Below, in pieces: positions 1-64,000 of a DNA stretch of 64,000 nt. Origin of the DNA: an uncultured Gammaproteobacteria bacterium (GTDB lineage: Bacteria > Patescibacteriota > Microgenomatia > Levybacterales > GWA1-39-11); NCBI GenBank assembly GCA_964531275.1, contig CAZHDZ010000004.1:73887-137886 (forward strand). Reading direction: 5' to 3'. The notes beneath the pieces were generated by a model. The model had not been told where the DNA came from and searched no databases. It saw nothing but the letters and a program-made list of their open reading frames with translations. Made by a program: the position numbers and the translations under genes. How positions within the stretch are numbered: the stretch's first letter is position 1; each line of letters starts with the position of its first letter.

Positions 1-1127
1 TTGTCGATTGCCCTTTTGAGAGGACCCAAGCCTCCTTCTCTCAAACCATCAACTGTTAATTCTGTTCCATTAGCAACTGCCTGACGCGCTTCTTGCTCTA
101 TAGTATCAATTGTCCAATACCCATCTGGTCTTCTCAGCTCATTTAGGCCTAATTTAAATCTCCAATACGCTCTCCCCTTCTCTGATAGCACTGCGTCCAA
201 ACTAGACTCACCAAGTATTGTAAGTTCTTCACGCGTAGGTAAATGGTCTAGTCCTTCACCCTTAATAATTCTTCTTATCTCAAACTCAACATAACTTTCA
301 TCTTGCAAACTCCCCCTGGTACGAATGCGTTGTTCAAAGCCCAATTTCAACTGCCAGGCTTGAAAACCTCCATTTTGTCTAATTGCATTTACCAAGCTTG
401 ATTCACCGTTATCGATTAATTGCTGAGGTGTTGGAAAACTATCTAAGCTATATTTTGCCATGAAACTTCTTATGAGCTGGGCAACATTGGCTTCATTTCT
501 CATTGAACCTCTTTCCCGACGTGGATTTTCAAAACCCATTCTCGTGCGATAATATTGAATAGATTTTGCAGAAATTGCTCTCGACAATTTCCATTCTTTT
601 AGCGCACCTAGGACTTTTTGATTAGGAAATGTAGTTAATCCATGAGCCTCCATAACCCTACGAATGTCCAGCTCAATTTCGGCATCACTTTCAAAACCTT
701 GTCTATTTGGATCCAAAGCTTCACCTTGTGATTGTGTTTGAAATTGACGGGTTTCTGTATTAAAAACTGAGCGAGCAAGGACCACACTCGAATCGTCCTG
801 CTTCTTTACAACTACTGTCAAATTTCCATCTTCATCTAGTGATGGCTCTAGAAGGACAGTATCACCCTCTTTAAAACCTGTACTTCTTAGAGCAATCCGT
901 ACACCACGTTTATTAAATTTACCTACATGAACAATTCGATTACCGTTTAATGTTCTGGTGAAAGGTGTTAGTTGATCTGCCCCAATCTCTCCGCGTAGAT
1001 ACTCAACGATATTACTTTGTCCTGTGAGCAATGCATCTGGTGCACTCTCTTGCAATACTTCTGTGAGTCCCAGTCCTGCATTAAATTGCCCATGCTCTTG
1101 TCCTGGAATTGGTTGTCCTTCACTCAT
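1..1127 (-). CDS. Paralog 1 of a tandem repeat-protein family (N-terminal part only; C-terminus lies beyond the window start). HEAR-like helical repeats.
   Basis: Reverse-strand ORF has no stop before the window edge. It starts MSEGQPIPGQEH at 1127 in an ATGA overlap with the stop of the next gene. The translation contains several ~50-aa repeats (GYWTIDTIEQEARQAV..., WQLKLGFE..., YWRFKLGL...) homologous to the three downstream paralogs. Confidence 0.6.
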   Translation of the reverse strand, partial: MSEGQPIPGQEHGQFNAGLGLTEVLQESAPDALLTGQSNIVEYLRGEIGADQLTPFTRTLNGNRIVHVGKFNKRGVRIALRSTGFKEGDTVLLEPSLDEDGNLTVVVKKQDDSSVVLARSVFNTETRQFQTQSQGEALDPNRQGFESDAEIELDIRRVMEAHGLTTFPNQKVLGALKEWKLSRAISAKSIQYYRTRMGFENPRRERGSMRNEANVAQLIRSFMAKYSLDSFPTPQQLIDNGESSLVNAIRQNGGFQAWQLKLGFEQRIRTRGSLQDESYVEFEIRRIIKGEGLDHLPTREELTILGESSLDAVLSEKGRAYWRFKLGLNELRRPDGYWTIDTIEQEARQAVANGTELTVDGLREGGLGPLKRAID

Positions 1128-2569
1128 GTCTCTTCCTCCAATCCTTTCATTAATTCGTCTGCTTGGTCAGGATTAGCCCCTAGGTCATGCTTTGTTAATC
1201 CTAATTTTTCCCTCAAAGCCTTGCGTCCACCAGGATAATGTTTTGCTATTGCAGCTGAAAGTCCACTATTCTTATTATCTATCATTAAGGTAGGCGTAAT
1301 ATCCCCATGTAGCTGAAAAAACTCAAAAGCTTCTCTTTCTATCCTTTCTGGATTCCATACAGAGGGAATCTCCTCAAGTTTTATTCCCAAAGCGTTCCTC
1401 AACTCGACTATACCTCCAGGATAATATCTTCCAATTACATACAAAAGGTCAGAATTTCCGCTAGCCTCCAATACTCTACCCGTCAATCGAGCTCCCGTAC
1501 TACAATATTCTTCTACTGCCTTCTTAATCTTATCTTCTGTCCAATATCCTTCTGGGTATTGAGAGAGTGCAACTCCCAATCTTTCTTTTAAGGCGTTCAT
1601 ACCTCCGGGATACTGAGCTGAAATTATTGGTCCTAGCTGACTCCCCTTCTCTCTTAGGGCTGGGACCGTTAATGCACCTTCTTTTATATAAAAATCTAGT
1701 GCTTCCTTTTCGATATTCGCGGGGTCTTGCCAATACCCATTTGGTTTTCTTCCTGGACTTATACCTAGTAACGTTTTTACTGCATCCATTCCTCCTTCAT
1801 ATTTTGTAATTGCTGATGAAAGAGAAGATGAGTCATTTTCAGCCAAAAGCTGATGAGAAATATCACCATGCTCTCTATAGAACTCGGCTGCACTCTGCAC
1901 TACCCTTTCCGATGTCCAAAATCCCTTGGGCTTATGTCCTCCCTCAACCAGTCCCAGCTTTTCTCTTAGTGCTCCTGTGGCCCCAGGATAATAAGAACTA
2001 ATTGCTGAGCTTAAATCTGCACGCCCTATTTGTTTTAAATACTCATGATTTATTTTCCCTCCGTTTGCAATGAGATTACGCGCCTCGTTCTCAATTGATT
2101 CAGGCGTCCAAAACCCTAATTCTTTATGCGGAGCATCTATTCCCAACTCTTCTCGTATCTTTTGAATTCCGCCCGGGTAGTGAATAGTTATTGCAGCTCC
2201 CAACCCTGACTGCTTGGCTTTCCCTAAGGCGTACACAGAAAGCTTGCCTGTTTCCTGATAAAATTTGAGCGCTTGCGACCGTATATCACTAAGTGCTTGA
2301 TCGGGATTCTCCCTTATCATTGCTGACCATAACGTTCTTTTTGCCGCTGATGCACCACCGTCTTCTTCCACTACGCCAGGTTCAACAACGGGAGAAAATA
2401 GACCATTCTTCATGTCATGGTCAATTAATGGACTAATCACCGTATCGCTATCCTTCTTTTCAACTAGAGGTTGCTCTGCAACCTGAGCGGTTGGATTTAT
2501 GATAGAGCCTTCAAGTGTAGACTGTTGCAAATTGACTTCTTCTTGCTGAATTGGCTCACCTTCGCTCAT
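1124..2569 (-). CDS. Paralog 2 of the repeat-protein family (481 aa), about eight tandem ~50-aa repeats.
   Basis: Repeat consensus: KPxGYW(T/S)xExIxxEAxxF...G.L....L...G.S.L..AI...YPGG...LRxKLG. C-terminal tail ISPDQADELMKGLEEET. ATGA start/stop overlaps on both sides. Confidence 0.7.
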   Translation of the reverse strand: MSEGEPIQQEEVNLQQSTLEGSIINPTAQVAEQPLVEKKDSDTVISPLIDHDMKNGLFSPVVEPGVVEEDGGASAAKRTLWSAMIRENPDQALSDIRSQALKFYQETGKLSVYALGKAKQSGLGAAITIHYPGGIQKIREELGIDAPHKELGFWTPESIENEARNLIANGGKINHEYLKQIGRADLSSAISSYYPGATGALREKLGLVEGGHKPKGFWTSERVVQSAAEFYREHGDISHQLLAENDSSSLSSAITKYEGGMDAVKTLLGISPGRKPNGYWQDPANIEKEALDFYIKEGALTVPALREKGSQLGPIISAQYPGGMNALKERLGVALSQYPEGYWTEDKIKKAVEEYCSTGARLTGRVLEASGNSDLLYVIGRYYPGGIVELRNALGIKLEEIPSVWNPERIEREAFEFFQLHGDITPTLMIDNKNSGLSAAIAKHYPGGRKALREKLGLTKHDLGANPDQADELMKGLEEET

Positions 2570-3759
2570 ATCTCCTCCTCCAATCCCCTCATTAATTCAT
2601 CTGCTTGGTCTGGGGAGATTTTCCCAAAATTTTCCTCTTCTATGCCAAGATAACTATTTAAAGCTGTAAAACCTCCAGGATAATATTTGGTGATTGCACC
2701 CATAAGACCTCCTGCTCCTTTTTTCAAAAGAAGTCTTCGAGATATTCTTCCATAGGTACCAACAAACTTTTTAGCTTCTTCTAAAGCTTTTTCTGCAGAC
2801 CAATAACCTTCAGGTTGTGCTTGATTAATACCAAATTTTGCCTTGATACCCCTCATCCCACCAGGATATTTTTCTGAAATAGCATGACGCAAATCAAATC
2901 GTTTTTCTTTTGATAAAAGTGATTGGGACAAGCCTCCATTTGACATAATAAATTCGGACGCTTGCTTTTCAATTTCCTCCACTGTCCATGGAATTTCTCT
3001 TCCGAAAGTCTGAGATCCAAATCTCTGCCTCCACTTAGAATAACCCCCATTCCTAATAATAGCTGCACTCAATGATGCTTCACCCATAGAGTGCAATTGT
3101 TCAGCGCTGGGAATCTCTGACAAATGATGCTCTTCAATTAGTCTTAATATTTCTAATTCAATGTTACTTTCATTATTCCAATACCCACTTTCCTTCTTTT
3201 CGGGCAGTCTTTCAAAACCCAGTCTTTCTCTCCAATAATTAAATCCTCCATTTCTGGTTACAGCAGATACGAGAGTACTGGAACCAGAGCTCACTATTTC
3301 TAAGGCTGATGGAAAATGCCCAATTTTTTCGACTATCTTTCTTAATTCTCCATCGATATTTTGTGTGTCTGTCCAATAATCAGGCGGTTTTTGGGTAATA
3401 GTAAATCCCAACTGCTGTCGCCATTCTCTAAATCCACCAGACTCAGTCACTGCATGTGCAAGAGAGTTCTTGCCCATTCCCCTCAACTCCATTGGTGTTG
3501 GGAAATGGCCAACAGAATCAATAATACTTCTTAATTCCCTTTCGATATTCGAGTTTTCCTTCCAATACCCTTGGGCCATTCTTTCAGAAGGCTGAATGTC
3601 ATCCACAACTGGTAGATCTTGCACCAACGATGGTTCTTGAACTGTTATTGTCTGGTCAATTAATATTGGTCCTTCTGCCAAGTCGGGTAACGAGACAATG
3701 GTATCTCCCGTAAATTCATTTTCTAAGTTTGAAACTATTACCCTATCTTGCTCACTCAT
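2566..3759 (-). CDS. Paralog 3 of the repeat-protein family (397 aa).
   Basis: Same GYW...E.NIE.E and YPGG...G repeat architecture. Conserved tail SPDQADELMRGLEEEI. Starts MSEQD. Translationally coupled by ATGA overlaps. Confidence 0.7.
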   Translation of the reverse strand: MSEQDRVIVSNLENEFTGDTIVSLPDLAEGPILIDQTITVQEPSLVQDLPVVDDIQPSERMAQGYWKENSNIERELRSIIDSVGHFPTPMELRGMGKNSLAHAVTESGGFREWRQQLGFTITQKPPDYWTDTQNIDGELRKIVEKIGHFPSALEIVSSGSSTLVSAVTRNGGFNYWRERLGFERLPEKKESGYWNNESNIELEILRLIEEHHLSEIPSAEQLHSMGEASLSAAIIRNGGYSKWRQRFGSQTFGREIPWTVEEIEKQASEFIMSNGGLSQSLLSKEKRFDLRHAISEKYPGGMRGIKAKFGINQAQPEGYWSAEKALEEAKKFVGTYGRISRRLLLKKGAGGLMGAITKYYPGGFTALNSYLGIEEENFGKISPDQADELMRGLEEEI

Positions 3760-4958
3760 ATCTCTTCCTCCAATCCTTGCAAAAATGTGTCTGCCTGATC
3801 AGGGGAAATAGTTAATTCAGCCTCTTTGCTCAATTTTTCTTTTAATGCCTCATATCCTCCTGGATATCCATTACCAATAAAATAAGCAAGACTACCTAAA
3901 CCTGATCTCACGAGCTCTCCTCTAGTTAGATGTACTCCCTTATCCAGTGCAGCCCGCGCTTCATTCTCAATATTAGATACGTCACTCCAATAACCATTTG
4001 CTTTTCTTACAGTTAAACCTAATTTTTCCCTTAAACCACTGTATCCTGCTGGATACTCCCGTTTGATTGCAGCCGCAAGAGCAGTGTAACCCTCCCTATG
4101 TAATGCGTCTTTTTTTATATCAATCCCTTTTTCTAATGCAGCGCGCGCTTCATTCTCAATAATTCCAGGATTCTGCCAATATCCAGGGGCTCTTTGCCTT
4201 GATGGTTGGTTAAACTTCCCTCTCCAAAAGGCTACTCCTTGATTTGCCATCGCCAGACCAAGGCTGGCATTTTTTCTGAGTTCAGTGTGAGTTGGAAAAT
4301 GGCCATATTCTTCAATGTGCCTTTTCAACTCATTTTCAATATTACTTTCATGGGTCCAGAATCCAGGGGGTTTACGTCCTCCAAATTCTGTACCTAAATA
4401 TTTTCTTAAAGCATACATTCCACCTGGGTACTTTTTGGAAATTGCTTGTAACAAATCGTCTCTTTTTAAGCTTCTTAGATTTGTTGCATTAAATACTTCC
4501 ATCCCGCCAACCAATGACATTGCCTCAGCTTCGATATTTTTGGGATCATCCCAATATCCTGCCGGCTTATTTTCTCTAGTTCTATCATCTTGCATATCCC
4601 TCCTTAATCCCGCAAAGCTTCCGGGATAATATTTTGAAATAACAGTTCCCAGCCCTGAATTGCCACTTATATTTAGTCCGTCTTGTGTTAAAGAAATACC
4701 TTCACTTACTAGCACCGAACTTCGTTGTTGTACATATAGCTTCAAAGTCTCAGGGGCTTCTGCTAATTTTTTCCAATCAATATAACCACGCGATTCTATT
4801 GGTGGAATAATTTCGGAAATTGGACTTTGACCTAAGGGTTGTTGAACTACAAATTCACCCTCCTTTTCAAGATTAGGGTTTTCTTTAATATCCAGAGATG
4901 ACCCTTCAAGAATCTGAGTGTCAGGAACTTGATTTATATTTACTTCTCCCTCGCTCAT
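3756..4958 (-). CDS. Paralog 4 of the repeat-protein family (400 aa).
   Basis: Starts MSEGEV. Repeats include GYWDDPKNIEAEA, GFWTHESNIENE, GYWQNPGIIENEA and GYWSDVSNIENEA. Tail ISPDQADTFLQGLEEEI. Confidence 0.7.
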   Translation of the reverse strand: MSEGEVNINQVPDTQILEGSSLDIKENPNLEKEGEFVVQQPLGQSPISEIIPPIESRGYIDWKKLAEAPETLKLYVQQRSSVLVSEGISLTQDGLNISGNSGLGTVISKYYPGSFAGLRRDMQDDRTRENKPAGYWDDPKNIEAEAMSLVGGMEVFNATNLRSLKRDDLLQAISKKYPGGMYALRKYLGTEFGGRKPPGFWTHESNIENELKRHIEEYGHFPTHTELRKNASLGLAMANQGVAFWRGKFNQPSRQRAPGYWQNPGIIENEARAALEKGIDIKKDALHREGYTALAAAIKREYPAGYSGLREKLGLTVRKANGYWSDVSNIENEARAALDKGVHLTRGELVRSGLGSLAYFIGNGYPGGYEALKEKLSKEAELTISPDQADTFLQGLEEEI

Positions 4959-4978
4959 GAAGTTATTATATAAAGATT

Positions 4979-6250
4979 TTACTCTATCTCGTAGATTGGG
5001 AAGTTGCGGAAAGAATCAATCGCTTCTTGTAAATGTCTCTCTGTCTGCGCATACATATCAAATATATTCTCATTATTTTTTACCTCATCATCAACTCTTT
5101 TTTTCAAAAATAAGCCGGCCCTAGCATCCTGAGGAGCCCCTAATATCTTTGCGATTAATGAGACGTTTCTATTATTCACTCTCTTTATTACACCGGATTT
5201 ATTGGATTTCACCTCGTGTGTTTTTGGTCCAGCATGAAGTTTTGAAGAAATAATAGTAGGGTCACCCTTTTGAGCCTCGATTATATCCATCATTTTCTTA
5301 TGAGCAACCCCGCTTATTAATATACTTTCTGCCCATTTCTCAGTGCTCTCGTATTTTTTAGCCTCTTCTTTGATCTTTTCATCAGCACTTTCAAGACATA
5401 AAGTCAAAAGTTCACCAGCAAGTTTTAGAGATTTTTTCTCCAGTGCCATAGGTCTCGTAGGATCCTGCTCAAGCACTTTAAGTGCATCGGCAGCTTCTAA
5501 AAGTGGTCCAATACCATTTCCTGCAGGCTCATATGCATGAGACAGAATTGCCTCAAGTTTTATATTGAATTTTTTGGCAATGAATTTAAATTTCTTGGCT
5601 AAATTCTCGCCGTCTTCCTTGTGGTGTACTTTCATGGTACGGCCATAAGGGATATCAATTACAACGTGATTGGAGCCAAATGCTATCTTTTTCGCCATAA
5701 CAGACACCAAAATCTTGTCAAAACTCTCAAGCGCCAAGGGTTCTTCAACATGTATTATCTGGTCATCAGCAGGTGCAATTTTAAAGCTTCCTCCCCATAC
5801 AATACAGGCATTTGTCTTTTCAACAATTCTATATATGTCATCCTCAGTAAAAGTAACGCTGGCAAGACATTCCATCGAATCCGCAGTACCAGCAGGGGTA
5901 GTGATGGCCCTAGAAGAGCTTTTAGGAATCAAAAATCCTGCACTTGCAATAATTGGCACAATTATCATGGTGGCTCTGGTCCCAGGAAGACCACCGATAG
6001 AATGTTTGTCGGCAACAACCCCTTTAAATTTAAGCTTGTCACCCGTCTCAATCATTGCCTTGGTGAGATAGTAAATCTCATCATAGGTAAAGCCCTTAGA
6101 GTATCCTGAAGCAGCAAAATAGGTAGTTAAGACATCACCCAATCGTTCATTTGCAATCTCATCCATGATCGCAAAAATCTCCTTATAGTTAAGCTCTTTG
6201 CCAACTAATTTTTTTTGTATTGCCTTTAGCGCCAGCGCATTGGGTACCAT
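4979..6250 (-). CDS. AMP phosphorylase / thymidine phosphorylase family protein (archaeal-type nucleoside phosphorylase).
   Basis: 423 aa. Motifs DKHSIGGLPGTRATMIIVPIIASAG and TTPAGTADSMECLA are typical of the pyrimidine-nucleoside / AMP phosphorylase family. Confidence 0.75.
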   Translation of the reverse strand: MVPNALALKAIQKKLVGKELNYKEIFAIMDEIANERLGDVLTTYFAASGYSKGFTYDEIYYLTKAMIETGDKLKFKGVVADKHSIGGLPGTRATMIIVPIIASAGFLIPKSSSRAITTPAGTADSMECLASVTFTEDDIYRIVEKTNACIVWGGSFKIAPADDQIIHVEEPLALESFDKILVSVMAKKIAFGSNHVVIDIPYGRTMKVHHKEDGENLAKKFKFIAKKFNIKLEAILSHAYEPAGNGIGPLLEAADALKVLEQDPTRPMALEKKSLKLAGELLTLCLESADEKIKEEAKKYESTEKWAESILISGVAHKKMMDIIEAQKGDPTIISSKLHAGPKTHEVKSNKSGVIKRVNNRNVSLIAKILGAPQDARAGLFLKKRVDDEVKNNENIFDMYAQTERHLQEAIDSFRNFPIYEIE

Positions 6251-6257
6251 AAATAAT

Positions 6258-6327
6258 AATTTTCAATTTCTAAATTCCAATTTTCAAGTTAGTTTGATCA
6301 ATTGGTATTTGATCATTGGCCATTAAC
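6258..6327. repeat. Copy A of a ~70-bp intergenic direct repeat (contains TAAATTCCAATTTTCAA).
   Basis: Aligns with 6558..6632 at about 80% identity. The core TCTAAATTCCAATTTTCAA is identical and recurs exactly 300 bp downstream. Confidence 0.6.
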
Positions 6328-6557
6328 AATTTATGCACCTGGCTTAAATTGTTCCAGGGCTACTTTTAAGAATCCTTTTATAACCCTTAATAGATGATAC
6401 AGGAAAAAAGATATAACTCTATTCACAGATGGCCAAATATTATAAAAAAATCTGTATATTCTGTCTTTCCATAAGGAAAGAGTATAGGCACGTTGCATTT
6501 GCTGATCTTCTGTTGAGGGCGTGTATTGCTGTTGATTGTTTGGATCCATACTTTGTT

Positions 6558-6632
6558 AATTCTCAAATTCTAAATTCCAATTTTCAAACTTTTTGGTTAT
6601 TGGTTTTTGATTATTGGTCATTGTTCTGCTGT
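6558..6632. repeat. Copy B of the ~70-bp direct repeat. Overlaps the 3' end of the sortase gene.
   Basis: Same core motif as 6258..6327. The pair flanks a 230-bp segment. Confidence 0.6.
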
Positions 6633-7375
6633 AGGCTCGCTCGAATAACAAGCCTTTTCCAAGTGGTGCCGGGAGGGGTACAGGTTATGAGGGTTATATA
6701 GCTATTGTCATAACTTTGGGAGAAGATATTTGGATCTTTTGGATCCGTAATCCCAATAGAAAATACTTTATAAGTATAGTCTTTACCATTAACAGTCAGA
6801 ACAAAGTCATCTCCTTCTTTTAACGTATGGAGTTTTGCAAAAATTGCCATGTAATTTTTAGGGTCAAACCATTGGGGAAGAGTTGAATGGCCAAATATTA
6901 CTGACGTTCCCTTTTCGATGGGACTTTTTGAAGTGGTAAAATACTGCACCAAATGCTTTGAAAGATCAAAATCGATAGCCGAAACTTTTGCCTTGTTAAT
7001 TCCTTGGGAAGGAATTGAGAATTCATACTCATCGACTTTCTTTACCTCAGCTTGAGTCTGTGCATGAACAACTTCTTGATTTGCTTGATACGGGAACCAA
7101 TTTCTTGCATCTTTATAGTCTGAAGTGACATTCTTAAATCCATGGCTAACAAGCCCTCCTAATGGACTAGAACCATTTAGGACATATCTCTGAGGTATAG
7201 GCGACTGAATCTCGCTCCCCGCAAAGGCTGATGAAAGATAGAGGTGATATGAGATCAATGGAAAGAAGAAGTAAAGGAGTGTTACTATTCCAAGACCGAT
7301 AATAAATAGCCCAAGTAACTTTTTCTTGTTGTGATAAAAAGAAGACCCACCTCTTCCATATGAATATCTATGCAT
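6611..7375 (-). CDS. Sortase-family transpeptidase.
   Basis: N-terminal TM helix, a conserved His region, and the sortase active-site motif ITLITCTPPGT followed by a conserved Arg (VIRA). Confidence 0.65.
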   Translation of the reverse strand: MHRYSYGRGGSSFYHNKKKLLGLFIIGLGIVTLLYFFFPLISYHLYLSSAFAGSEIQSPIPQRYVLNGSSPLGGLVSHGFKNVTSDYKDARNWFPYQANQEVVHAQTQAEVKKVDEYEFSIPSQGINKAKVSAIDFDLSKHLVQYFTTSKSPIEKGTSVIFGHSTLPQWFDPKNYMAIFAKLHTLKEGDDFVLTVNGKDYTYKVFSIGITDPKDPNIFSQSYDNSYITLITCTPPGTTWKRLVIRASLQQNNDQ

Positions 7376-7377
7376 GG

Positions 7378-9624
7378 TTATTGCGTCTTAACCTCAATAC
7401 TAATATTTCCTGGATTTAGAGGCACAATTTGAGGCAAAAATGGAATAGCATTTTCAAATTGAATTGACGCATCTGAAATACCGGGAGTTTGCTTTAGACT
7501 ATCAAGGGCTTCTTTTGATCCTTTCCCCGCAACAATTTTAGGCACTGATTTTTCATCAAGTGATGGCTTGAAAATAGCGTTATACGAAAGTTTTGCTGAG
7601 AGATCTTTTCCGTCTTGCTTGATATCTGAGATTTTAATTGTACTTTCATTATCTGAAAGCTTAAATTCATCGGGTACATCAAATTCATCCGATGAAGAAA
7701 TGAAATTGAGAAGCTCTTCCTTGTTGTAGACTCCCAATGTATATGTTACTGAAGCATTTAACTTCAATGTCTTTGCAGTATCATTCTCTTTTCTGTCAAA
7801 TTTTTTCTCCTTAAAGTCAAAGGAAAGATACATTGGGACCATTGCGTCTTTCTCAGACAAAGATCCTTCTGCTTCTCCTTTTGCTTTATCAAAAAGTCTT
7901 TCAATAACTGATGTTTCAAGTGTCTGCAAGTCTTTCTTAGAAACTACCTGTATCTCTTCCTTTGTTCCGCCTGAGAATGCAGAATCATTTCTTCCGAAAA
8001 CATCAGAAGTAGAAAGGCCCTTTATTGTAAAGTTTGTTTGGGATGGAAGGTTATACTCTTTACCAAAACTCGAAGCTGCAACTTTTGCCTGAGCGCTTTG
8101 GAAAGATGTCGCAAAAGAGCTGGTCGAGGCAATACTAACCGCATCGTTAAGAGTAAATTCAAGATTGTTTGAGGAAGTAATAGTCGATCCTTTTTCTAGT
8201 TGCTTGGGGCTTTCTGTCTTGTTAAAAATGGTTACTGTACCAGTCGCTTTTTGACCGGTATCTTTCTTGCCTGTGGTTTCTTGGGCCTGCTCTCCGCTTG
8301 CCTCTTGCTCTATTGTAGAAATCTTAAGTATTTTATCCTCAAAAGATGAACTACCGCTTGTACTTAATGTTATATCCATCTGATCTTGAGCAAATTCTTT
8401 TTGATCCGTAAATACAATTACCTTCACCTTTACAATTGCTGTGTAATAAATCACAAGAACAACTATCACGACAATAAGCGCAATCAAAGGAATTATAAAT
8501 TGTCTTCCACTACCGATCATTTTTGGGAAGCGAGATAGTGATCTTGGAGTAAAAAAAGAAGCCAATGACTCCTTAAAACCTCTTCGTGCACTACTATGGC
8601 CTTCTACTTCTTCGGGGATGTCCTCCTCATATTCACTTTCAGCAACCTCAGTTTGCTCAATACCATGATGCTTTATAACTGCATGTGAAGTATTATCTTC
8701 ACTAAATTTAAAGCCATCTTCCTCAGGGGTAGTTGGCGACACCTCAGATACTACTTGAGAAGCAACTAGAGCAATGTCTTCGTCTTTCAAAAATCCGAAA
8801 TCATTACTACTCGATTCTTTTACCTCCCCTACTTCTATGTCTTCTTCTCTTGAAGGCGTGACCATTTCACCACTTATCGTTACGTTGAGTTGAGATGCTA
8901 CTCCCGTTATTATTGCTTGATTTTCAAATCCCTTCTCAAGAATAGTCACCTGAGGCAAGTGCATAAATGGAAGTTCTTTCGTCCAGTGATGTGACAGGAA
9001 TTTCTGAGAAACTGCCTCAGCCTCCTTATTGTGAAGAAGAATTATCTTTGGGGGAAGTACATCAAGCTTTGTTACTTGGGAAAGCAATTTTTCAACGGTA
9101 GCCTCAACACCATCCTCTACAATTCCGTGCTTAACATCAATGATATTCCCCCCTCTTACGATAAATACTGTTAAATACTTCTCCGAAAGTTCAACAAAAA
9201 TACCACTGATTGGAGCTCCTTCTTTCTTTTGCAATGCGGCTGTTATTGCCTCAATTGAGACGATAAAACCCATAGGGGTAAGTGCTAGTTCTTGGCTTAT
9301 TTTTTTAAGTTGCGTCAGTCTTTCGGACTTGATTCTTCCTTCCTCAACCCATGAGTAAGGAACTGCAAATATAGTCTTTTCTAAATTCGCACCCTCTGGA
9401 AGGCTCATCTCAATACGCGAAATGACTGTATCACATACAACAATAAGATCTTCTGCAGATGATTGTTCAAGATCTACTGGTGCTTCATGAGAGGAAAGGA
9501 TAATGAGAGTTTTTTCTTGTTCTTTAAAAAGGATAGAGGAAACCTTATCCGACTCAAAAATTAGAGCCAGAAAAAATTCAGTAGTAACAGTCTTTGTTAA
9601 GAATGGTATGGCAGGAAACTTCAT
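7378..9624 (-). CDS. Large hypothetical membrane protein (748 aa): N-terminal cytoplasmic domain, single TM, Ser/Thr-rich extracellular region.
   Basis: Long ORF with one strong hydrophobic helix (FIIPLIALIVVIVVLVIYY) and no recognisable catalytic motif. Abuts the sortase gene. Confidence 0.45.
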   Translation of the reverse strand: MKFPAIPFLTKTVTTEFFLALIFESDKVSSILFKEQEKTLIILSSHEAPVDLEQSSAEDLIVVCDTVISRIEMSLPEGANLEKTIFAVPYSWVEEGRIKSERLTQLKKISQELALTPMGFIVSIEAITAALQKKEGAPISGIFVELSEKYLTVFIVRGGNIIDVKHGIVEDGVEATVEKLLSQVTKLDVLPPKIILLHNKEAEAVSQKFLSHHWTKELPFMHLPQVTILEKGFENQAIITGVASQLNVTISGEMVTPSREEDIEVGEVKESSSNDFGFLKDEDIALVASQVVSEVSPTTPEEDGFKFSEDNTSHAVIKHHGIEQTEVAESEYEEDIPEEVEGHSSARRGFKESLASFFTPRSLSRFPKMIGSGRQFIIPLIALIVVIVVLVIYYTAIVKVKVIVFTDQKEFAQDQMDITLSTSGSSSFEDKILKISTIEQEASGEQAQETTGKKDTGQKATGTVTIFNKTESPKQLEKGSTITSSNNLEFTLNDAVSIASTSSFATSFQSAQAKVAASSFGKEYNLPSQTNFTIKGLSTSDVFGRNDSAFSGGTKEEIQVVSKKDLQTLETSVIERLFDKAKGEAEGSLSEKDAMVPMYLSFDFKEKKFDRKENDTAKTLKLNASVTYTLGVYNKEELLNFISSSDEFDVPDEFKLSDNESTIKISDIKQDGKDLSAKLSYNAIFKPSLDEKSVPKIVAGKGSKEALDSLKQTPGISDASIQFENAIPFLPQIVPLNPGNISIEVKTQ

Positions 9625-11481
9625 TTAACTCACTTTTACATAAAGACGTCTTACCCCACGGGCAACGCCTTCTTCCTTAAGTATATCAAATGACTGGATA
9701 AGATCTGTATGCTCAACATGAGGACCTCCACAGAACTCTATGGAATAAGCTTTCTCTTTTTCTGAGTGTGGGTTTGGCCCGCCAATAAAGTATATTTTTA
9801 CGTCTTTTGCATATTTGTCATCAAATAACCCGATTGCTCCTAGGTCTCGAGCCTTCTGAAGAGGCATAATCTCAAAATGCACAGAAAGATCTTCTGCTAT
9901 TTTCTTATCTACAATTTCCTTAACTTTTTGCAATTCTTCTGGGGTTACTTTTTTATCATATGTAAAATCGAATCGCACTCTTTCTGACGTGATATTACTT
10001 CCCGTCTGATGCACTGAGTCCCCCAGAATGTCACGAAGGGCCTGATGCATGAGATGTGTCGCTGTATGCCCTTTAACAGTTAATTCTGAATGGTCTGCAA
10101 GACCACCAGCAAATTTTTGCGATGAACCAGCTCGAGAATTTTCCTGATGCTTTTTAATAAGCTCTGAAAGCTCTTTATCATCAAATGTATACCCAAGGCT
10201 TTTAAGCTGAGTTGGACCAAGACCATAGCTTGCCATAGATTTAAATGCTAAATCTGCAGAAATTAATGTAACTCCCATTAATTCATCTCCAACAGTTACT
10301 TCTTCGGTAATTCTTGATAACTCTTTTTCTATAAGCTTTTTTCCGCCAGCGAGTGCTTTTTGATATGTCTGCTCCTCTTCAAGAATTATATTTTTAATCT
10401 CGATGAACTGGTCTTTAAGAATCGGATCAGTAGGAGCATATTGCTCTACAATTTTTTCCAAGACCGACGAAATGTCTTTTCCAGAAAGTAGGTAGAAATT
10501 ATCTAGTCCTCTTCTTATTAAGCGGCGCAGAATATACCCTTGTTCTTTGTTTGAAGGTTTTACTCCATTCGATGCAATAAAAATGGAAGCAGTCATATGA
10601 TCCAAAACAATTCTCATTTCACGAAATTCCTTCGCATAATCTTTACCTGTAATCTCTGCTATTTTTTCAATAATTGGATAGAAAAGACTTGATCTAAATA
10701 CATCTTGCTTGTTCTCGGTAGCAGCAACGAGTCGCTCAAGACCTCCACCAAAATCTACATTTTGTTTTGGTAGATCTTCAAATCCATTTTCGGTCTTGAT
10801 GTATTGCATAAATACCGAATTGCCAATTTCCAAATATCTTCCGCAATCACAATTTACATGACAATGTAAATTCTTAAATGGGCTATTCTCATGAAGTCCT
10901 AATTCCTCCCCAAAGTCATAAAACATTTCGCTATCAGGTCCACCTGGCTCTCCATTTGGCATCTTATCTGGAGTTCCTGCACGAGACCACCAATTCTTCT
11001 CAACACCATATTCAAAGATTTTATCTTTTGGGTCTAGGCCTTTTTTTGTAAAAAGTTCTTTCCAAATTTCAATACTCTCGGTGTCTTTTTCAACTGTATC
11101 CGATCCCTCAAAAACAGTGACAAATAATTTCTTTGGATCAAGATTTAATTCTTCTGTTAAGAATTCAAAAAACCAAGGAAGTTGTTCTTTCTTAAAATAA
11201 TCTCCAAGAGACCAATTTCCAAGCATTCTAAAAAATGTTGTATGTCTGTTATCTCCTATTTCATCGATATCTTGAGCGCGAAAACTATTTTGAGCATTTA
11301 CTAATCTTTTTCCAGAAGGATGCTCTTCGCCGAGAAGAAATGGTACAAGCGGTTGCATTCCTGATGATGTAAAAAGAGTTGTCGGGTCATTCTGTGGCAC
11401 GAGTGAAGAATTCTCAATGCGTGCGTGTCCACGCTTTTCAAAAAATGAAATGTATTTATTAAGAATTTCTGAAGCTGTCAT
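9625..11481 (-). CDS. alaS: Alanine--tRNA ligase (short form, 618 aa).
   Basis: Class II AlaRS motifs FTSSGMQPLVPF and RHTTFFRMLGNWSLGDYFK. Editing-domain HTATHLMHQALRDILG. Confidence 0.9.
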   Translation of the reverse strand: MTASEILNKYISFFEKRGHARIENSSLVPQNDPTTLFTSSGMQPLVPFLLGEEHPSGKRLVNAQNSFRAQDIDEIGDNRHTTFFRMLGNWSLGDYFKKEQLPWFFEFLTEELNLDPKKLFVTVFEGSDTVEKDTESIEIWKELFTKKGLDPKDKIFEYGVEKNWWSRAGTPDKMPNGEPGGPDSEMFYDFGEELGLHENSPFKNLHCHVNCDCGRYLEIGNSVFMQYIKTENGFEDLPKQNVDFGGGLERLVAATENKQDVFRSSLFYPIIEKIAEITGKDYAKEFREMRIVLDHMTASIFIASNGVKPSNKEQGYILRRLIRRGLDNFYLLSGKDISSVLEKIVEQYAPTDPILKDQFIEIKNIILEEEQTYQKALAGGKKLIEKELSRITEEVTVGDELMGVTLISADLAFKSMASYGLGPTQLKSLGYTFDDKELSELIKKHQENSRAGSSQKFAGGLADHSELTVKGHTATHLMHQALRDILGDSVHQTGSNITSERVRFDFTYDKKVTPEELQKVKEIVDKKIAEDLSVHFEIMPLQKARDLGAIGLFDDKYAKDVKIYFIGGPNPHSEKEKAYSIEFCGGPHVEHTDLIQSFDILKEEGVARGVRRLYVKVS

Positions 11482-59058: not shown

Positions 59059-59334
59059 TTATTGAATAATTTTTTGAAAGAAGTTGTTGATTCTATCAAG
59101 ATCTTTCAAGGTATATTTTTTTGGAATGTCATTGCCGAGGAGTACTCTGCGAGTTTCTAGAGAGCAAAGTGTGTATTTTATCTGAGTCGGAATTTTCTCT
59201 TCTGGCATTTCTGAGCTCATTATTAACTTTTTGAGCTTTGTTGCCAAATAGCTAAATTTTATTTCATCGTGCTTATACCTATCTATCAGAACAATGATTT
59301 CAAAAAATGATTCTTTGTTATTTTGAAAATCCAT
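59059..59334 (-). CDS. Small hypothetical protein (91 aa) at the distal end of the Rhs locus.
   Basis: Intact ORF. Position is consistent with an immunity-type gene but there is no direct evidence. Confidence 0.3.
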   Translation of the reverse strand: MDFQNNKESFFEIIVLIDRYKHDEIKFSYLATKLKKLIMSSEMPEEKIPTQIKYTLCSLETRRVLLGNDIPKKYTLKDLDRINNFFQKIIQ

Positions 59335-59471: not shown

Positions 59472-59864
59472 CTAATAGCAATATTCTTTTATTCCTGTAA
59501 TTTTATTGTTAAGGTCGGCAAATATTCTTATTCCGCCACATGGAAGCCATCCTATTTTGTTGATAACTGAACTCTGGGTATAGTAGGTTAATCTAATATA
59601 AGCGTTTCCATTAGATCTAACGTTATATGTTCTTTGATCGTATGACCAATCAGTAACGTAGTCGATCTCAGCAGGTTTACCTGCGTAAGCAATAAGATTC
59701 TCGATACTTTTACCTTCAAGTCTTTTTTCTTCGTATAGCCCTGAAATTCTGTGATAATTAGCATTCAAGAAGCTAGAAACAAGAATAGTATATAAAACCA
59801 ATAGTAATACTATTGCGACAAGCAATTTAAGAACTGTAGTATATTTAAGTTTTAGTATGTACAT
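59472..59864 (-). CDS. Small membrane-anchored protein (130 aa). Candidate immunity protein for the adjacent orphan Rhs toxin module.
   Basis: Lies immediately downstream (same strand) of the orphan toxin ORF. N-terminal TM (LLVAIVLLLVLYTILV). Confidence 0.35.
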   Translation of the reverse strand: MYILKLKYTTVLKLLVAIVLLLVLYTILVSSFLNANYHRISGLYEEKRLEGKSIENLIAYAGKPAEIDYVTDWSYDQRTYNVRSNGNAYIRLTYYTQSSVINKIGWLPCGGIRIFADLNNKITGIKEYCY

Positions 59865-59873
59865 CGTAATGAA

Positions 59874-60428
59874 TTACCAGCAGACGTTTGGTTTCCATGC
59901 GTTACCTGTAATAGAACCGTCATTCAACTTATACGTACCAGAATAATCTCTTGGAGTTCCAGCTGCGTTTAACACAGCCTTAACTGCATTATTCAAGAGT
60001 TCTCTTGTGCCATTCACTGTATAAACTCCATTATTAGTTACCATTACGTCAACCCCGGTGCCATTCTTGTAGATTGAATCATTTGAGAAAATGACTCCAT
60101 CCTGAGGTCTTGGATCATTAGTCTTTGCTGGTAACCAATTGTACTCATCCGTATTCTCATTTTCAAGCTTAATCAACACTGCTTGATCCGAATTATTATA
60201 AACAGCCTCCCCACTCGGGTCTGACAAATTTATTGGATCTCCATTAGTAAAGTTGTAGCCATTTTGGGTTTGTGGATTCATAAGATCTCCTTCGACTGGA
60301 TCTCTGGAGATGAATCTTCCAATTGAAGGATCGTAATATCTAGCGCGCATGTAAGTAAGGGAGGTATTTGGGTCAAATTGCTCTCCTTTGTATTGAAAGT
60401 CATCTTCTCCAACTCCGCTTAATACATT
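59874..60428 (-). CDS. Orphan Rhs C-terminal module 2: 3' end of the Rhs core (RYYDP...DPxG) plus a distinct ~110-aa C-terminal toxin-like domain.
   Basis: DNA homology to the main rhs gene (62380..62520) and to orphan 1 (61260..61400) runs from ~60428 to the DPSG motif, then diverges. The ATG-bounded ORF is 59874..60350 (MRARYYDPSIGRFISRDPVEGDLMNPQTQNGYNFTNGDPINLSDPSGE...). Confidence 0.65.
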   Translation of the reverse strand, partial: NVLSGVGEDDFQYKGEQFDPNTSLTYMRARYYDPSIGRFISRDPVEGDLMNPQTQNGYNFTNGDPINLSDPSGEAVYNNSDQAVLIKLENENTDEYNWLPAKTNDPRPQDGVIFSNDSIYKNGTGVDVMVTNNGVYTVNGTRELLNNAVKAVLNAAGTPRDYSGTYKLNDGSITGNAWKPNVCW

Positions 60429-60461
60429 TCATATTAATAGAGAGTTGAACTAATAATTATT

Positions 60462-60785
60462 ATGAAGATTTGGTATACTACATCGCATATGGAAAATGCT
60501 TATTTAATAGCGGTAATTTTTTATACAATCCTGGCAGTACTAGTGCTTTGCGCAGAATTTAACTTTGTTAAGGTTTACAGAAAAAAAGGGTTTGAAAAAA
60601 AAGATTCAGAGCATAATACACTAGTTTTTTTATTGCTTCATTCAGAATACAATCTAAAAGCTTTATTTCTTGCATTTAATAAAATTCCAGATCAAGAAGT
60701 AGAAAAAGCAAGAAAAGCTTTCCTTGGATCTTTAGCACTAGCTATAATAGGTGTGTTTGGCCTTCAGATTTACTTCGCTTTATAA
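60462..60785 (+). CDS. Small two-TM membrane protein on the opposite strand between the two orphan Rhs modules.
   Basis: 107-aa ORF with two hydrophobic helices. Could be an immunity gene or a spurious ORF. Confidence 0.3.
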   Translation: MKIWYTTSHMENAYLIAVIFYTILAVLVLCAEFNFVKVYRKKGFEKKDSEHNTLVFLLLHSEYNLKALFLAFNKIPDQEVEKARKAFLGSLALAIIGVFGLQIYFAL

Positions 60786-60793
60786 TAAATCAA

Positions 60794-61588
60794 TCACCAC
60801 GCAGAACCTATTACAATAGTTTCGCTCTTACCTCCATGTATTCCTACGGGTAAAGAAATACCCCCATTCAAACCTACCTCTACAGCAGTGATATTGTTCG
60901 TCTCTAAGTTTTTTTCGAAAGATACATCTACTGGCCCTACCCAAAAACCTAGCTGACTACTAGTCCCATTAAGATCCGAAGGTTTTTTTACATTACTATC
61001 CCAATTGTAATAAACTGATCCACCCCCGCTAACTATATCAAAGGTACTACCCCCTATTGATGTGGACTTCGCCTTGCCCGTACCCTGAGGAGTACTAACG
61101 CTACAGTTTGAATATGACCCAGCCACTCCGACACCTCCCGATATACAGCCGCATATCCCGAAGGCATCTTTGCCAGATGGGTCGGAGAAGTTCACGGGGT
61201 CACCATTTGTAAAATTATATCCATTTTGTGTTTGTGGATTCATAAGATCTCCTTCGACTGGATCTCTGGAGATGAATCTTCCAATTGAAGGATCGTAGTA
61301 TCTTGAGCGCATGTAGGAAAGATTGGTATTTGGATCAAATTGTTCTCCTTTGTACTGAAAGTCATCTTCCCCTATTCCACTTAGTACATTTCCGTATGGG
61401 TCGTAAGATAGATCTTTAATATATTCTCCGTTGCTATCTGTAACAATTCTAATATTTCCAATTCCATCTTCTAAGTAGTATTCACGATTTCCACTACTTA
61501 CCCCACCTTCACTTATGAGTCCATTGCCGTAGAGATAATAATTATCAGTACTATTTGTAAGATCTTTGGTAACAAGTACTTTTTCCAA
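60794..61588 (-). CDS. Orphan Rhs C-terminal module 1: ~130 aa of the Rhs core 3' region plus a distinct Gly-rich ~125-aa C-terminal toxin-like domain.
   Basis: Near-identical to the main rhs gene from DLEKVLVTKDLTNSTDNYY through RYYDPSIGRFISRDPVEGDLMNPQTQNGYNFTNGDP, then unrelated. An in-frame TGA sits immediately upstream of the TTG/Leu at the homology boundary. Confidence 0.7.
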   Translation of the reverse strand: MEKVLVTKDLTNSTDNYYLYGNGLISEGGVSSGNREYYLEDGIGNIRIVTDSNGEYIKDLSYDPYGNVLSGIGEDDFQYKGEQFDPNTNLSYMRSRYYDPSIGRFISRDPVEGDLMNPQTQNGYNFTNGDPVNFSDPSGKDAFGICGCISGGVGVAGSYSNCSVSTPQGTGKAKSTSIGGSTFDIVSGGGSVYYNWDSNVKKPSDLNGTSSQLGFWVGPVDVSFEKNLETNNITAVEVGLNGGISLPVGIHGGKSETIVIGSAW

Positions 61589-61683: not shown

Positions 61684-61935
61684 CTATAAAAATTCTATAA
61701 TACCAAAAATGGATAATATTCCAAAAAATATGAAGACAAACCCAACAAATATATACATAATCGATGTATTTTGTTTAGTAGTCTCGCTATACTGCATCCT
61801 GATATGCAGAAGCTTATTTATTTTTTTTCTCTGTTCAACCGCAGCTCTTGAAAGCTTATCAGGATTAAATACTGAATACACACCAACCATTACAAGAATA
61901 ATGCCTGGCACCTTTGACATAAAATTTTCAATCAT
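61684..61935 (-). CDS. Small two-TM membrane protein directly downstream of the main rhs gene. Candidate Rhs immunity protein.
   Basis: 83 aa. TM helices GIILVMVGVYSVF and IMYIFVGFVFIFFGILSIFGII. Starts 16 bp after the rhs stop. Confidence 0.45.
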   Translation of the reverse strand: MIENFMSKVPGIILVMVGVYSVFNPDKLSRAAVEQRKKINKLLHIRMQYSETTKQNTSIMYIFVGFVFIFFGILSIFGIIEFL

Positions 61936-61950
61936 ATCGCAATTATAAAT

Positions 61951-64000
61951 CTATTTACATAAATTGCCATAAGTTTTTTGAATCATTGCAGATGCACCAC
62001 GCGCGCCTAATCCCGCTTCCGTAGTCATAGTTCCTGTCTTTGGATTTACATTTAATTGGTATGCTATAGGTACAGGTCCAGCCATGAAATTTGTCTGAAA
62101 CGATGCGTCCGTTCCGGGAGAAGGCTCCGCTTTTGAATATGTAACAGAGGCACCAATCCCACCAGGAAATGCAACACCTGCAGCATGATATAAATATACC
62201 CCTGTCTTATCTAGATCTACAAGCGCTCCCACTCCTATGGCTAAGGGTACAATACCAACGCTTACACCAACGTTAACATAGTCTTCTCCGCTAGGGTCCG
62301 CGTAATTTATTGAATCTCCGTTTGCAAAGTTGTAGCCATTTTGGGTTTGGGGACTCATAAGATCTCCTTCGACTGGATCTCTGGAAATGAAACGGCCAAT
62401 GTTTGAATCATAGTATCTTGCGCGCATGTAGGAAAGATTGGTATTTGGATCAAGTTGTTCTCCCTTGTATTGAAAGTCGTCTTCTCCTATTCCACTTAGT
62501 ACATTTCCGTATGGGTCGTAAGATAGATCTTTAATATATTCTCCGTTGCTATCTGTAACAATTCTAATATTTCCAATTCCATCTTCTAAGTAGTATTCAC
62601 GATTTCCACTACTTACCCCACCTTCACTTATGAGTCCATTGCCGTAGAGATAATAATTATCAGTACTATTTGTAAGATCTTTGGTAACAAGTACTTTTTC
62701 CAAATCTCCAGAAACATCATTTATATACTTTTTAGTAAGAGAAGAATTTTCTTTTTCTGCAACTCTCTTACCATTGCCGTCGTATAGAAAATGATACGTA
62801 GGGCTTCCAGATGCTGCATATGTTGCCAATTTATTTTCGAAGTTAAAAGTAAGTGTTTTGTTACCAAATCCAGTTATGTTGCCATTATTGTCATAAGAAT
62901 AGGATGTGCCGTCTTTTACTGTAAGCCTATTGTCATTATTGTATGTAAGAGCACTGCTGGATGCACCCAATGTTCCTGTTAGCATATTCCCAACCTTGTC
63001 ATATGTATAAGCAAATGAATTGCTTGCAGATGTTGCTGCTGTGAGTCTTCCTAATGGGTCATAAGTAAACTGAAAATTTGACGAAGCACCACCACTTGCT
63101 TCTGCTGGCTCAAGCGCTACAGCAACATGGTTTGATCTACCACCATAAGAGAGACTCCAATCCATATCGACCGCTGCTGGCCCACCGGATTGAATAATAC
63201 TAGAGCCACTTCCATTGTCATAAGAATTTGGATGACCGTTTTCTGACCAATCCAATTCATTGTCACCATCTTCAGTGGGGACAGGCTCTGATTCTATTAC
63301 ATCAATAATTACATTATTTGCCGAATTAGGTGTAATGCTAACGGAAGAATAATTACTGCTTTGAGATAGACTGTCTGATTCAACAGTGTAGGTCTGTTTG
63401 ACATTGTATATGGAGTAAGCTGCTAGAAAAGTGTAGTCCCCGCCACTAAGTCCTGATGTTACGATGCTACCACTTCCGCCTGCTGGCGCCTGCAAGCCCC
63501 ACATTTGTACGAATTCTCCATACTGACCGATTTGCTGAGCCAACTTAGTCAAAGCAACCCCTCCATATGTCACTCCAGTTGCCCCAGTTGCTCCTCCCCC
63601 TTGGTGAGAGCCGACTGATACAAGCAAGAATCTGTTTGAATTACTGCCATTGACCGGAAAACTGGAGAGAGTTACGTTACCCCCAGTATTGTGCGTTGAT
63701 TCTATCGTCCCATCAAGCTCGATAGTTGAACCTCCACCGCCCCCAATGCCTTCAGACGAAGCCTCGGCCGGTTCAAGAGCAACTGCAACATGGTTGGATC
63801 TTGCACCGTAAGAAAGCGCCCAATTCATATCAACCTCGGAAGGTCCCCCAGACTGAACTATGGTAGAGCCACTTCCATTGTCATAAGAATTTGGATGACC
63901 GTTTTCTGACCAATCCTCTATATTGGCTCCGTCAACAGTTGGCACAGGCTCTGACTGAATAGCATCAATTATCCAATTATCGGCTGAGTTTGGAGTGATG
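61951..64000 (-). CDS. Rhs/YD-repeat polymorphic toxin (partial; N-terminus beyond the window) with a unique Gly-rich hydrophobic C-terminal domain.
   Basis: YD repeats (YDPLGRLT, YTYDKVGNM, YSYDNNGNI, YHFLYDGNGKRV). Core end motif RARYYDSNIGRFISRDPVEGD...DPSGE. The ORF is still open at the window end. N-terminal region carries a repeated ~55-aa unit (DWSENGHPNSYDNGSGS...). Confidence 0.85.
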   Translation of the reverse strand, partial: ITPNSADNWIIDAIQSEPVPTVDGANIEDWSENGHPNSYDNGSGSTIVQSGGPSEVDMNWALSYGARSNHVAVALEPAEASSEGIGGGGGSTIELDGTIESTHNTGGNVTLSSFPVNGSNSNRFLLVSVGSHQGGGATGATGVTYGGVALTKLAQQIGQYGEFVQMWGLQAPAGGSGSIVTSGLSGGDYTFLAAYSIYNVKQTYTVESDSLSQSSNYSSVSITPNSANNVIIDVIESEPVPTEDGDNELDWSENGHPNSYDNGSGSSIIQSGGPAAVDMDWSLSYGGRSNHVAVALEPAEASGGASSNFQFTYDPLGRLTAATSASNSFAYTYDKVGNMLTGTLGASSSALTYNNDNRLTVKDGTSYSYDNNGNITGFGNKTLTFNFENKLATYAASGSPTYHFLYDGNGKRVAEKENSSLTKKYINDVSGDLEKVLVTKDLTNSTDNYYLYGNGLISEGGVSSGNREYYLEDGIGNIRIVTDSNGEYIKDLSYDPYGNVLSGIGEDDFQYKGEQLDPNTNLSYMRARYYDSNIGRFISRDPVEGDLMSPQTQNGYNFANGDSINYADPSGEDYVNVGVSVGIVPLAIGVGALVDLDKTGVYLYHAAGVAFPGGIGASVTYSKAEPSPGTDASFQTNFMAGPVPIAYQLNVNPKTGTMTTEAGLGARGASAMIQKTYGNLCK

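Follow-up and report, generated by a model that had tools for sequence, protein, structure and literature searches.

Glycine-rich tips of an Rhs toxin locus in a Microgenomates bacterium, paired with small two-transmembrane proteins, may act at the membrane

What does the C-terminal tip of an Rhs toxin do to a target cell when no known enzymatic domain can be detected in it? The question is raised by a locus at the end of a 64,000-nucleotide stretch of contig CAZHDZ010000004.1 (the whole of this stretch is called the window below). There, on the minus strand, lies the 3′ part of a main Rhs/YD-repeat toxin gene (61951-64000), whose translation is open from 63999 to a stop at 61951 and continues beyond the window end. 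It is followed by two shorter cassettes, orphan 1 and orphan 2, each with a tip of its own. A preliminary description of this DNA had proposed that the main tip and orphan tip 1 are Gly-rich hydrophobic domains without nuclease or deaminase motifs, that both are paired with small proteins having two transmembrane (TM) segments, and that both are membrane-targeting toxins. We infer that these tips do act at or in the membrane, a reading in which toxicity, protection and site of action are all reached indirectly and to which we assign a probability of about 0.55. The membrane-toxin interpretation is plausible and better grounded than before: a conserved pairing with two-TM proteins, a predicted fold like that of the Vap proteins of Rhodococcus equi and the precedent of Tse5/Tsi5 speak for it, but the tips are not hydrophobic membrane-spanning domains.

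All three tips lie downstream of an Rhs-associated core. In the main gene this core occupies 62287-62520 on the minus strand (TIGR03696, E 3.6e-18, residues 494-571 of the partial translation) and ends in ...INYADPSGE at 62284, the boundary to the main tip; the window fragment of the gene also matches the PF05593 RHS_repeat model (E 4.6e-9). The interval 61951-62330 consists of the stop codon, the 110-residue main tip and the last 15 residues of the core. Each tip begins right after DPSGE or DPSGK, the residue that follows the Gly being E or K instead of the usual L. The tip peptides quoted in the preliminary description are all present where it had placed them.

The main tip (61954-62283, minus strand, 110 aa) contains 14.5% Gly and 12 charged residues and has a grand average of hydropathy (GRAVY) of +0.26. 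Orphan tip 1 (60797-61171, minus strand, 125 aa) contains 18.4% Gly and 16 charged residues, with a GRAVY of +0.02. The Gly background is 7.6% in the other proteins of the window and 12.8% in the Rhs body itself, and 110-aa windows reach the Gly content of the main tip in 2.7% of cases and that of orphan tip 1 in 0.6%. The Gly enrichment of both tips is real, though moderate, while the word hydrophobic was an overstatement. The only stretch above a TM-like hydropathy threshold is formed by main-tip residues 2-25; orphan tip 1 contains none. In the strands, apolar residues alternate with Gly, Ser, Thr or charged residues in the style of soluble β-barrels. The tips are soluble-type β domains, not hydrophobic membrane-spanning ones. 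Neither Gly-rich tip matched a Pfam or NCBIfam model at E ≤ 1, glycine-zipper and other annotated membrane-toxin models included, which bears out the earlier remark that nuclease and deaminase motifs are lacking.

Orphan tip 1 is one of a family of C-terminal toxin domains, about 120 aa long, that lacks annotation. Word-index homologue searches with each tip alone returned self-matches only, and a scan of the genome collection with orphan tip 1 alone gave no match. Adding a Gly-rich tip from a near-identical strain (the orphanB tip of L001, described below) to the query recovered P0004, from a groundwater metagenome. An exhaustive HMMER search with a four-sequence profile against 1.84 billion representatives (E ≤ 1e-3) yielded 52 cluster representatives, nearly all of them full-length matches at the extreme C-terminus. 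In some proteins the domain adjoins DPxG and in others a linker intervenes; many of the carriers are short, and several have 973-2183 aa. The members include low-GC sequences resembling those of the Candidate Phyla Radiation (CPR), high-GC sequences labelled Actinobacteria or Actinomycetota, and sequences from other lineages, and their source labels read only 'RHS repeat-associated protein' or 'hypothetical protein'. Orphan tip 1 matches a family profile built without it at 71.1 bits (E 4.5e-24), over profile positions 4-130 of 135. The profile has the pattern GxC...SxC...GGGG...SNA...L.G...G.S...P.E.HGG..T..W; the conserved positions are mainly Gly, together with the S-N-A motif, L.G, G.S and E.HGG..T...W. 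A pair of Cys residues, C7 and C23, is conserved in 83% and 90% of the members and would fit a disulfide and action outside the cytoplasm.

Ten members of the family compared with Pfam gave no relevant match, and a PDB sequence search with the family found no relative; sequence matches to 'Bagel' propellers in the PDB proved to be repeat artefacts, with per-stretch E ≥ 0.35. Two entries of the 2012 polymorphic-toxin catalogue were considered as the identity of the family and rejected, Ntox38 at a length of only 33-43 aa and Tox-WTIP with its two helices.

AlphaFold2, given an alignment of 48 sequences, predicted orphan tip 1 as an eight-stranded β-barrel with a short helix between strands 4 and 5, at a mean predicted local distance difference test (pLDDT) score of 88.4 and a predicted TM-score (pTM) of 0.77. 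When this model was compared with the PDB by Foldseek, five entries were returned at a probability of 1.00, and all were R. equi Vaps: VapB (7b1z, 4cv7), VapD (4csb) and VapG (5aeo). These matches had E-values of 4e-4 to 4e-3 and TM-scores of 0.55-0.70 over about 120 aligned columns, and the next matches were green fluorescent proteins at a probability below 0.3. Avidins and other up-and-down barrels were absent from the top matches, which argues that the model shares the special topology of the Vaps. In the Vaps, two Greek keys with a short helix connecting them make up a compact eight-stranded barrel, whose topology has been called unique and whose surface is described as 'bald' with glycine (PMC8329714). 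VapA binds to liposomes, makes them permeable and dissipates pH gradients, as do VapB and VapN to a lesser degree (PMC10100859). Orphan tip 1 is thus confidently predicted to have the Vap fold.

Family hidden Markov model (HMM) scores against the Vaps stayed within the range of shuffled sequences, and there was no match to the Pfam R_equi_Vir model at E ≤ 1. No internal duplication of the kind present in Vaps was detectable when the N-terminal and C-terminal halves of the family were aligned with hhalign. A search of a viral structure library gave no match, and no paper linking Vaps with Rhs proteins was found in the literature. It is tempting to regard the Gly-rich tips of about 120 aa as an old and widespread interbacterial toxin family with the Vap fold, with which the R. 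equi Vaps share their origin or from whose membrane-active polymorphic-toxin tips they descend. We put this forward as a tentative idea, well short of an even chance.

An 83-aa protein, the candidate immunity protein for the main tip, is encoded at 61684-61935 on the minus strand, its open reading frame (ORF) beginning 15 nt past the main stop codon. As had been described, it directly follows the main gene and has two hydrophobic stretches; these are strongly hydrophobic (maximum Kyte-Doolittle value over 19 residues, KD19, 2.84) and flank a Lys/Arg-rich loop. It is conserved beside the same tip in L001. A 107-aa protein with the same layout of TM segment, basic loop and TM segment is the candidate immunity protein for orphan tip 1 (60462-60785, plus strand). 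Its gene is convergent with orphan cassette 1, the two stop codons lying 8 nt apart, and no minus-strand ORF follows orphan tip 1. The claim that both tips are paired with small two-TM proteins holds for the presence of both partners, but the second of them stands on the opposite strand.

This arrangement recurs. Homologues of the 107-aa protein occupy the same inverted position in L001 to L006 and in L088, where the closest relative of orphan tip 1 (P0008, its tip 62% identical) has a 99-aa homologue of the 107-aa type 8 nt away on the opposite strand. At all loci seen, in at least three organisms, partners of the orphan-tip-1 type lie on the strand opposite the toxin cassette (window, 60462-60785, plus strand; L088, 1283-1582, minus strand; L094, 9260-9553, minus strand), while other partner subtypes keep the strand of the cassette. 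Downstream of the orphanB-type tips in L001, L007, L089 and L094, and on their strand, lie genes for homologous two-TM proteins of 113-117 aa (BLASTP 1e-20 to 5e-9). L094 also encodes a 97-aa homologue of the 107-aa type. It lies inverted right behind the cognate 113-aa gene, in a neighbourhood that has no tip to match it, and this stand-alone copy is an apparent orphan immunity gene. Altogether, two-TM partners recur with matching tip subtypes in at least five independent loci. The case for regarding the small membrane proteins as immunity proteins is founded chiefly on this co-variation of partner type with tip type across unrelated organisms, which, as far as genome comparison can tell, supports the view that the tips and their two-TM neighbours are toxin-immunity pairs.

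Common ancestry among the partner types is another matter. The 107-aa and 113-117-aa types share a YRKK motif after the first TM segment, but homology between them is weak (z about 3; part of the profile scores fall in the range of shuffled sequences), and homology of the 83-aa protein with other two-TM proteins is unsupported (z < 1). In P0013 (238 aa) one ORF reads from a toxin tip into a homologue of the two-TM partner of 113-117 aa, which is either a real fusion or an artefact of sequencing or gene calling.

The main tip stands in a separate, very small family made up of P0001 and L098. L098, an orphan Rhs cassette from another organism, was the only relative of the main tip found in a metagenome scan; the two are 48% identical over the best segment and 45% over the aligned tips. 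The motif VTYSKAEPSPG is identical in both, and it is invariant in the alignment of the main-tip family. In L098 the tip is followed 35 nt downstream by a 74-aa two-TM ORF with a layout like that of the 83-aa ORF. A PDB sequence search with the main tip gave only chance matches to transporters at E ≤ 10, and a local match to VapA (SFQ.N..GP / LN.N) was rejected, having an hhalign probability of 1.6% and not exceeding shuffles. Main tip and orphan tip 1 align in BLASTP with E 3e-4 over 41 aa, and the main tip reaches a Smith-Waterman z > 3 with 5/51 family members, against 1/51 for a control tip. Membership of the main tip in the orphan-tip-1 family was rejected: its profile scores of 3.4-4.9 bits were equalled by 34-81 of 1000 shuffles, and hhalign gave a probability of 0.7-2.7%.

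We propose that the main tip and orphan tip 1, small Gly-rich domains predicted to be all-β, are most likely non-enzymatic, and that in this lineage each tip type would be neutralised by its own two-TM protein with a basic cytoplasmic loop. The toxin would most likely act at or in the cytoplasmic membrane of the target cell. Action there is argued from the membrane location of the partners, the lack of an enzymatic signature in both window tips, the precedent of Tse5/Tsi5 and the membrane activity of VapA. A likely effect would be a leak of ions or protons, as with VapA and the Rhs tip Tse5-CT; alternatively, the tip may bind a membrane-embedded target that the immunity protein shields. Permeabilisation of the Vap kind specifically is less probable than action at or in the membrane in general.

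Several observations weigh against this proposal. Membrane insertion of the tips is a step that we infer rather than one read directly from the computations, and the tips are not hydrophobic, the outer faces of their strands being polar or lined with Gly. The likeness to Vaps belongs to a predicted model, and an hhalign comparison of the family with the six Vaps of pVAPA1037 gave a probability of 0.05%; the mechanism of Vaps is itself incompletely understood, and the membrane activity of VapB is weak (PMC10100859). For the main tip, all-β structure is predicted, but its AlphaFold model, from a four-sequence alignment, is unreliable (pLDDT 42), and a fold search with this low-confidence model returned no significant match. 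The relation of the main tip to the orphan-tip-1 family, judged by sequence comparison, is not significant, so the two tips cannot be shown to form one family, and the 83-aa ORF has no significant sequence similarity to the 74-aa partner in L098 (E 0.39). Positions at which the family conserves Ser (92%), Glu (85%) and His (88%) could be catalytic. Finally, what follows the tip in the actinobacterial members P0021 and P0045 is a conserved ORF of 103-130 aa whose product is soluble and has no TM segment. The two soluble ORFs are 44% identical (E 4e-21), and the copy in L091 overlaps the end of the tip gene. Because partners are two-TM proteins in CPR bacteria and soluble in Actinobacteria, the kind of immunity protein appears to be lineage-specific.

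An alternative would be a toxin that binds at the outer face of the membrane and does not permeabilise it, sequestering a membrane-anchored part of the envelope, for instance a lipid-linked cell-wall precursor or a membrane protein, with the two-TM protein masking or replacing the target. According to the prediction, the barrel is a compact, soluble one that does not span the membrane; Vaps have been likened to avidins, with a proposed cavity for a ligand (PMC8329714); the conserved Cys pair points to a function outside the cytoplasm; and membrane-located immunity proteins are also compatible with this explanation. We nevertheless hold such a binding toxin to be unlikely: the PDB comparisons showed no resemblance to binding toxins, known lipid II binders included, and, to judge by their sequences, the two-TM partners have hardly any part exposed beyond the membrane, their long Lys/Arg-rich loop being probably cytoplasmic. 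Somewhat less likely again is that the family of orphan tip 1 consists of enzymes not recognised as such, or of toxins that hit a target in the cytoplasm, beside which the two-TM neighbours would be lineage-specific accessory genes or unrelated ones. In favour of this, the actinobacterial tips are followed by an overlapping, conserved ORF for a soluble protein, an arrangement usual for immunity proteins that work in the cytoplasm, and conservation of the Ser, Glu and His positions stands at 85-92% across the family. However, the Ser and the Glu are absent from orphan tip 1 (W77 and G110) and from its closest relative, a single Pro is the sole invariant residue of the family, no enzyme family or fold was matched, and the recurrence of two-TM partners with matching subtypes speaks against unrelated neighbours.

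That the locus might not function at all, with tips that are decaying or of low complexity and small ORFs that are chance frames in AT-rich DNA, we regard as very improbable. It is true that a promoter and terminator scan gave nothing beyond chance expectation (promoter-like sites, 15, against 13.2 expected from shuffled sequence) and that the orphan cassettes are without an obvious start of their own. The conservation data already contradict this explanation, however: the tip family is conserved at full length over 52 clusters and has a high-confidence fold, partner ORFs are conserved in unrelated organisms, and the region is 98.5% identical between strains with its frames intact. Among these possibilities, action of the tips at or in the membrane remains the one we prefer.

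The locus as a whole encodes a Sec-exported Rhs/YD polymorphic toxin with one tip expressed and a series of further cassettes, each with a tip and a candidate immunity gene, kept in reserve and swapped via repeated core DNA. In L001 the full-length orthologue of the main protein has 1964 aa and an N-terminal Sec-type signal peptide, and PF05593 matches it over seven stretches (E 7.8e-89). PAAR, VgrG and LXG domains were not found in this orthologue, where a Pfam search matched RHS repeats only. In the window, orphan cassette 1 (60794-61588, minus strand) is made up of a 5′ Rhs core fragment (61172-61588; TIGR03696, E 1.4e-20) and its tip, and orphan cassette 2 (59874-60350, minus strand) of a short core fragment (TIGR03696, E 2e-12) and a tip unrelated to the two Gly-rich ones. 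What both ORFs repeat is the 3′ part of the core, beyond which their tips differ. A 300-nt repeat of core DNA is present in three copies (60217-60516, 61179-61478 and 62294-62593), of which the latter two form a direct repeat with 89% identity. The core fragment of the orphan cassettes is a recombination substrate.

A natural deletion illustrates the exchange. The DNA of the main gene is 90% identical between the window and L001, which has the same main tip and 83-aa gene, followed by two extra cassettes without counterpart in the window: orphanA, with a tip related to orphan tip 2 and a 127-aa anchored protein, and orphanB, with a Gly-rich tip and a 116-aa two-TM protein. After orphanB, the order in L001 is orphan 1, the 107-aa gene, orphan 2 and the remainder. 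By blastn, window positions 64000-61211 are colinear with L001 5341-8132, and 61403-59008 with L001 10006-12402 at 98.5% identity. The window joins the core fragment of the L001 orphanA cassette to the tip of orphan 1, and the crossover zone (61211-61403, minus strand) corresponds to about 190 nt of core repeat common at the junction. Because the junction sits in this repeat, which matches both L001 stretches, the window strain has lost the two cassettes by core-repeat recombination.

Orphan tip 2 (about 59877-60206, minus strand) differs from the other two tips, as had been pointed out: it is hydrophilic (GRAVY -0.59), with 8.2% Gly and 15.5% Asn, and ends in Cys-Trp. The 130-aa protein that follows it (59472-59864, minus strand), a candidate immunity protein, carries a single N-terminal membrane anchor by hydropathy, again in agreement with the preliminary description. 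Orphan tip 2 is 37% identical to the L001 orphanA tip; between the 130-aa ORF and the 127-aa ORF behind the orphanA tip, identity is 30%. A QDGVIF motif occurs both in orphan tip 2 (59877-60206) and in its L001 relative (8031-8552), and a profile of the two showed a weak, non-significant match to the N-terminal part of ribonuclease Sa (E about 0.15-0.4); going by this likeness, orphan tip 2 might be a ribonuclease. The partner of orphan tip 2 has 130 aa in the window and in L003 to L006. In L001 (11645-11938) and L002 it is called with 97 aa and lacks the N-terminal anchor; the shortened form may reflect a frameshift or the decay of an immunity gene for a silent cassette.

The host is a CPR bacterium of the Microgenomates group. 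The polynucleotide phosphorylase (PNPase) encoded in the window is 98% identical to that of one contig of a metagenome-assembled genome (MAG). It shares 56-57% identity with the enzymes of Levybacteria and Gottesmanbacteria MAGs, and every match more distant than these is from Patescibacteria. Translation initiation factor IF-2 (486 aa) and alanyl-tRNA synthetase (AlaRS, 618 aa) are short compared with typical bacterial lengths, which fits a reduced CPR genome. The MAGs nearest to the window are titled 'uncultured Gammaproteobacteria bacterium', yet their PNPase groups with Patescibacteria, and these titles look like placeholders or mislabels.

Further observations concern the surroundings of the locus. 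A 91-aa hydrophilic basic ORF (59059-59334, minus strand; weak match to TIGR04540, E 0.05) ends the cassette array in every related contig. The Rhs protein carries a repeated non-YD module, ...ITPNSA.N.IID.I.SEPVPT.DG...DWSENGHPNSYDNGSGS...VALEPAEAS, at a spacing of about 220 aa (L001 1496-7390), and two copies of it in the window (63098-63337 and 63761-64000, 77% DNA identity) lie just upstream of the last YD repeats. In L094, a 2056-aa orthologue-like Rhs gene with an orphanB-type tip (P0007) stands between a relaxase-like gene and type IV secretion system pilin, PrgI, TraC and TraG genes (L094 1140-1934 and 10134-12896), and is probably carried on a conjugative element. Elsewhere in the window, a 748-aa ORF (7378-9624, minus strand) with a Baseplate_J-like match (E 4.8e-6) lies within a run of same-strand ORFs (1124-11481), which could be a prophage or a tail-like injection system of the CPR genome. 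Rfam gave no match anywhere in the window.

Rhs loci with swappable tips were already known, as was one characterised membrane-acting Rhs tip with a two-TM immunity protein, in Tse5/Tsi5. What the present locus adds is an unannotated family of putative toxin tips in CPR bacteria, Actinobacteria and other lineages, the confident prediction for it of the Vap fold, a fold described as unique and of debated mechanism, and immunity solutions that appear to differ between lineages, including a candidate immunity gene kept on the opposite strand. It is moreover a record of toxin weaponry among CPR bacteria, and little is understood of how these bacteria interact with other cells. Should the link in fold prove true, interbacterial competition with pairs of tip and immunity protein would offer a simple system for learning how Vap-type barrels disturb membranes; if the two groups should also share their origin, the immunity proteins, two-TM in CPR bacteria and soluble in Actinobacteria, would provide a genetic handle on membrane attack by the Vap fold.

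Among known systems, the 2012 polymorphic-toxin catalogue lists Tox-WTIP as the only pore-former, and the orphan-tip-1 family was not found among its domains (PMC3482391). A close parallel is the pair Tse5 (RhsP1) and Tsi5 of Pseudomonas aeruginosa, where the C-terminal Rhs tip forms ion-conducting pores and the immunity protein has two predicted TM regions (PMC9637101, PMC10684867). The locus described here resembles that pair in its Rhs shell, small and apparently non-enzymatic tip, adjacent gene for a two-TM candidate immunity protein and probable target in the cytoplasmic membrane. The tips themselves differ: a PDB sequence search showed no similarity to Tse5, whose structure has been solved (PMC10684867), and the prediction for Tse5-CT is a helical domain with TM helices and amphipathic ones, whereas our tips are predicted to be all-β and are not hydrophobic. 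Delivery differs as well, Tse5 travelling by the type VI secretion system via a PAAR-like domain, while the protein of this CPR bacterium has a Sec signal peptide.

With the Vaps (Pfam R_equi_Vir; PDB 4cv7, 7b1z, 4csb and 5aeo), which are the only PDB structures matched by its predicted model, orphan tip 1 shares, as far as the prediction goes, a Gly-rich eight-stranded barrel of about 105-125 aa with a short helix between strands 4 and 5 (PMC8329714). Both are secreted, and VapA is membrane-active (PMC10100859). In contrast to the tips, Vaps stand alone, act on host phagolysosomes, and have neither an immunity gene nor an Rhs carrier, and no sequence relationship between the two is detectable. 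Characterised WapA tips are, to our knowledge, nucleases with soluble immunity proteins. In architecture, the locus is nonetheless like the WapA-type Sec-exported YD/Rhs toxins of monoderms, with which it shares the signal peptide, YD repeats, Rhs core, variable tip and downstream (here candidate) immunity gene, as well as arrays of orphan cassettes that are exchanged by recombination (PMC3482391).

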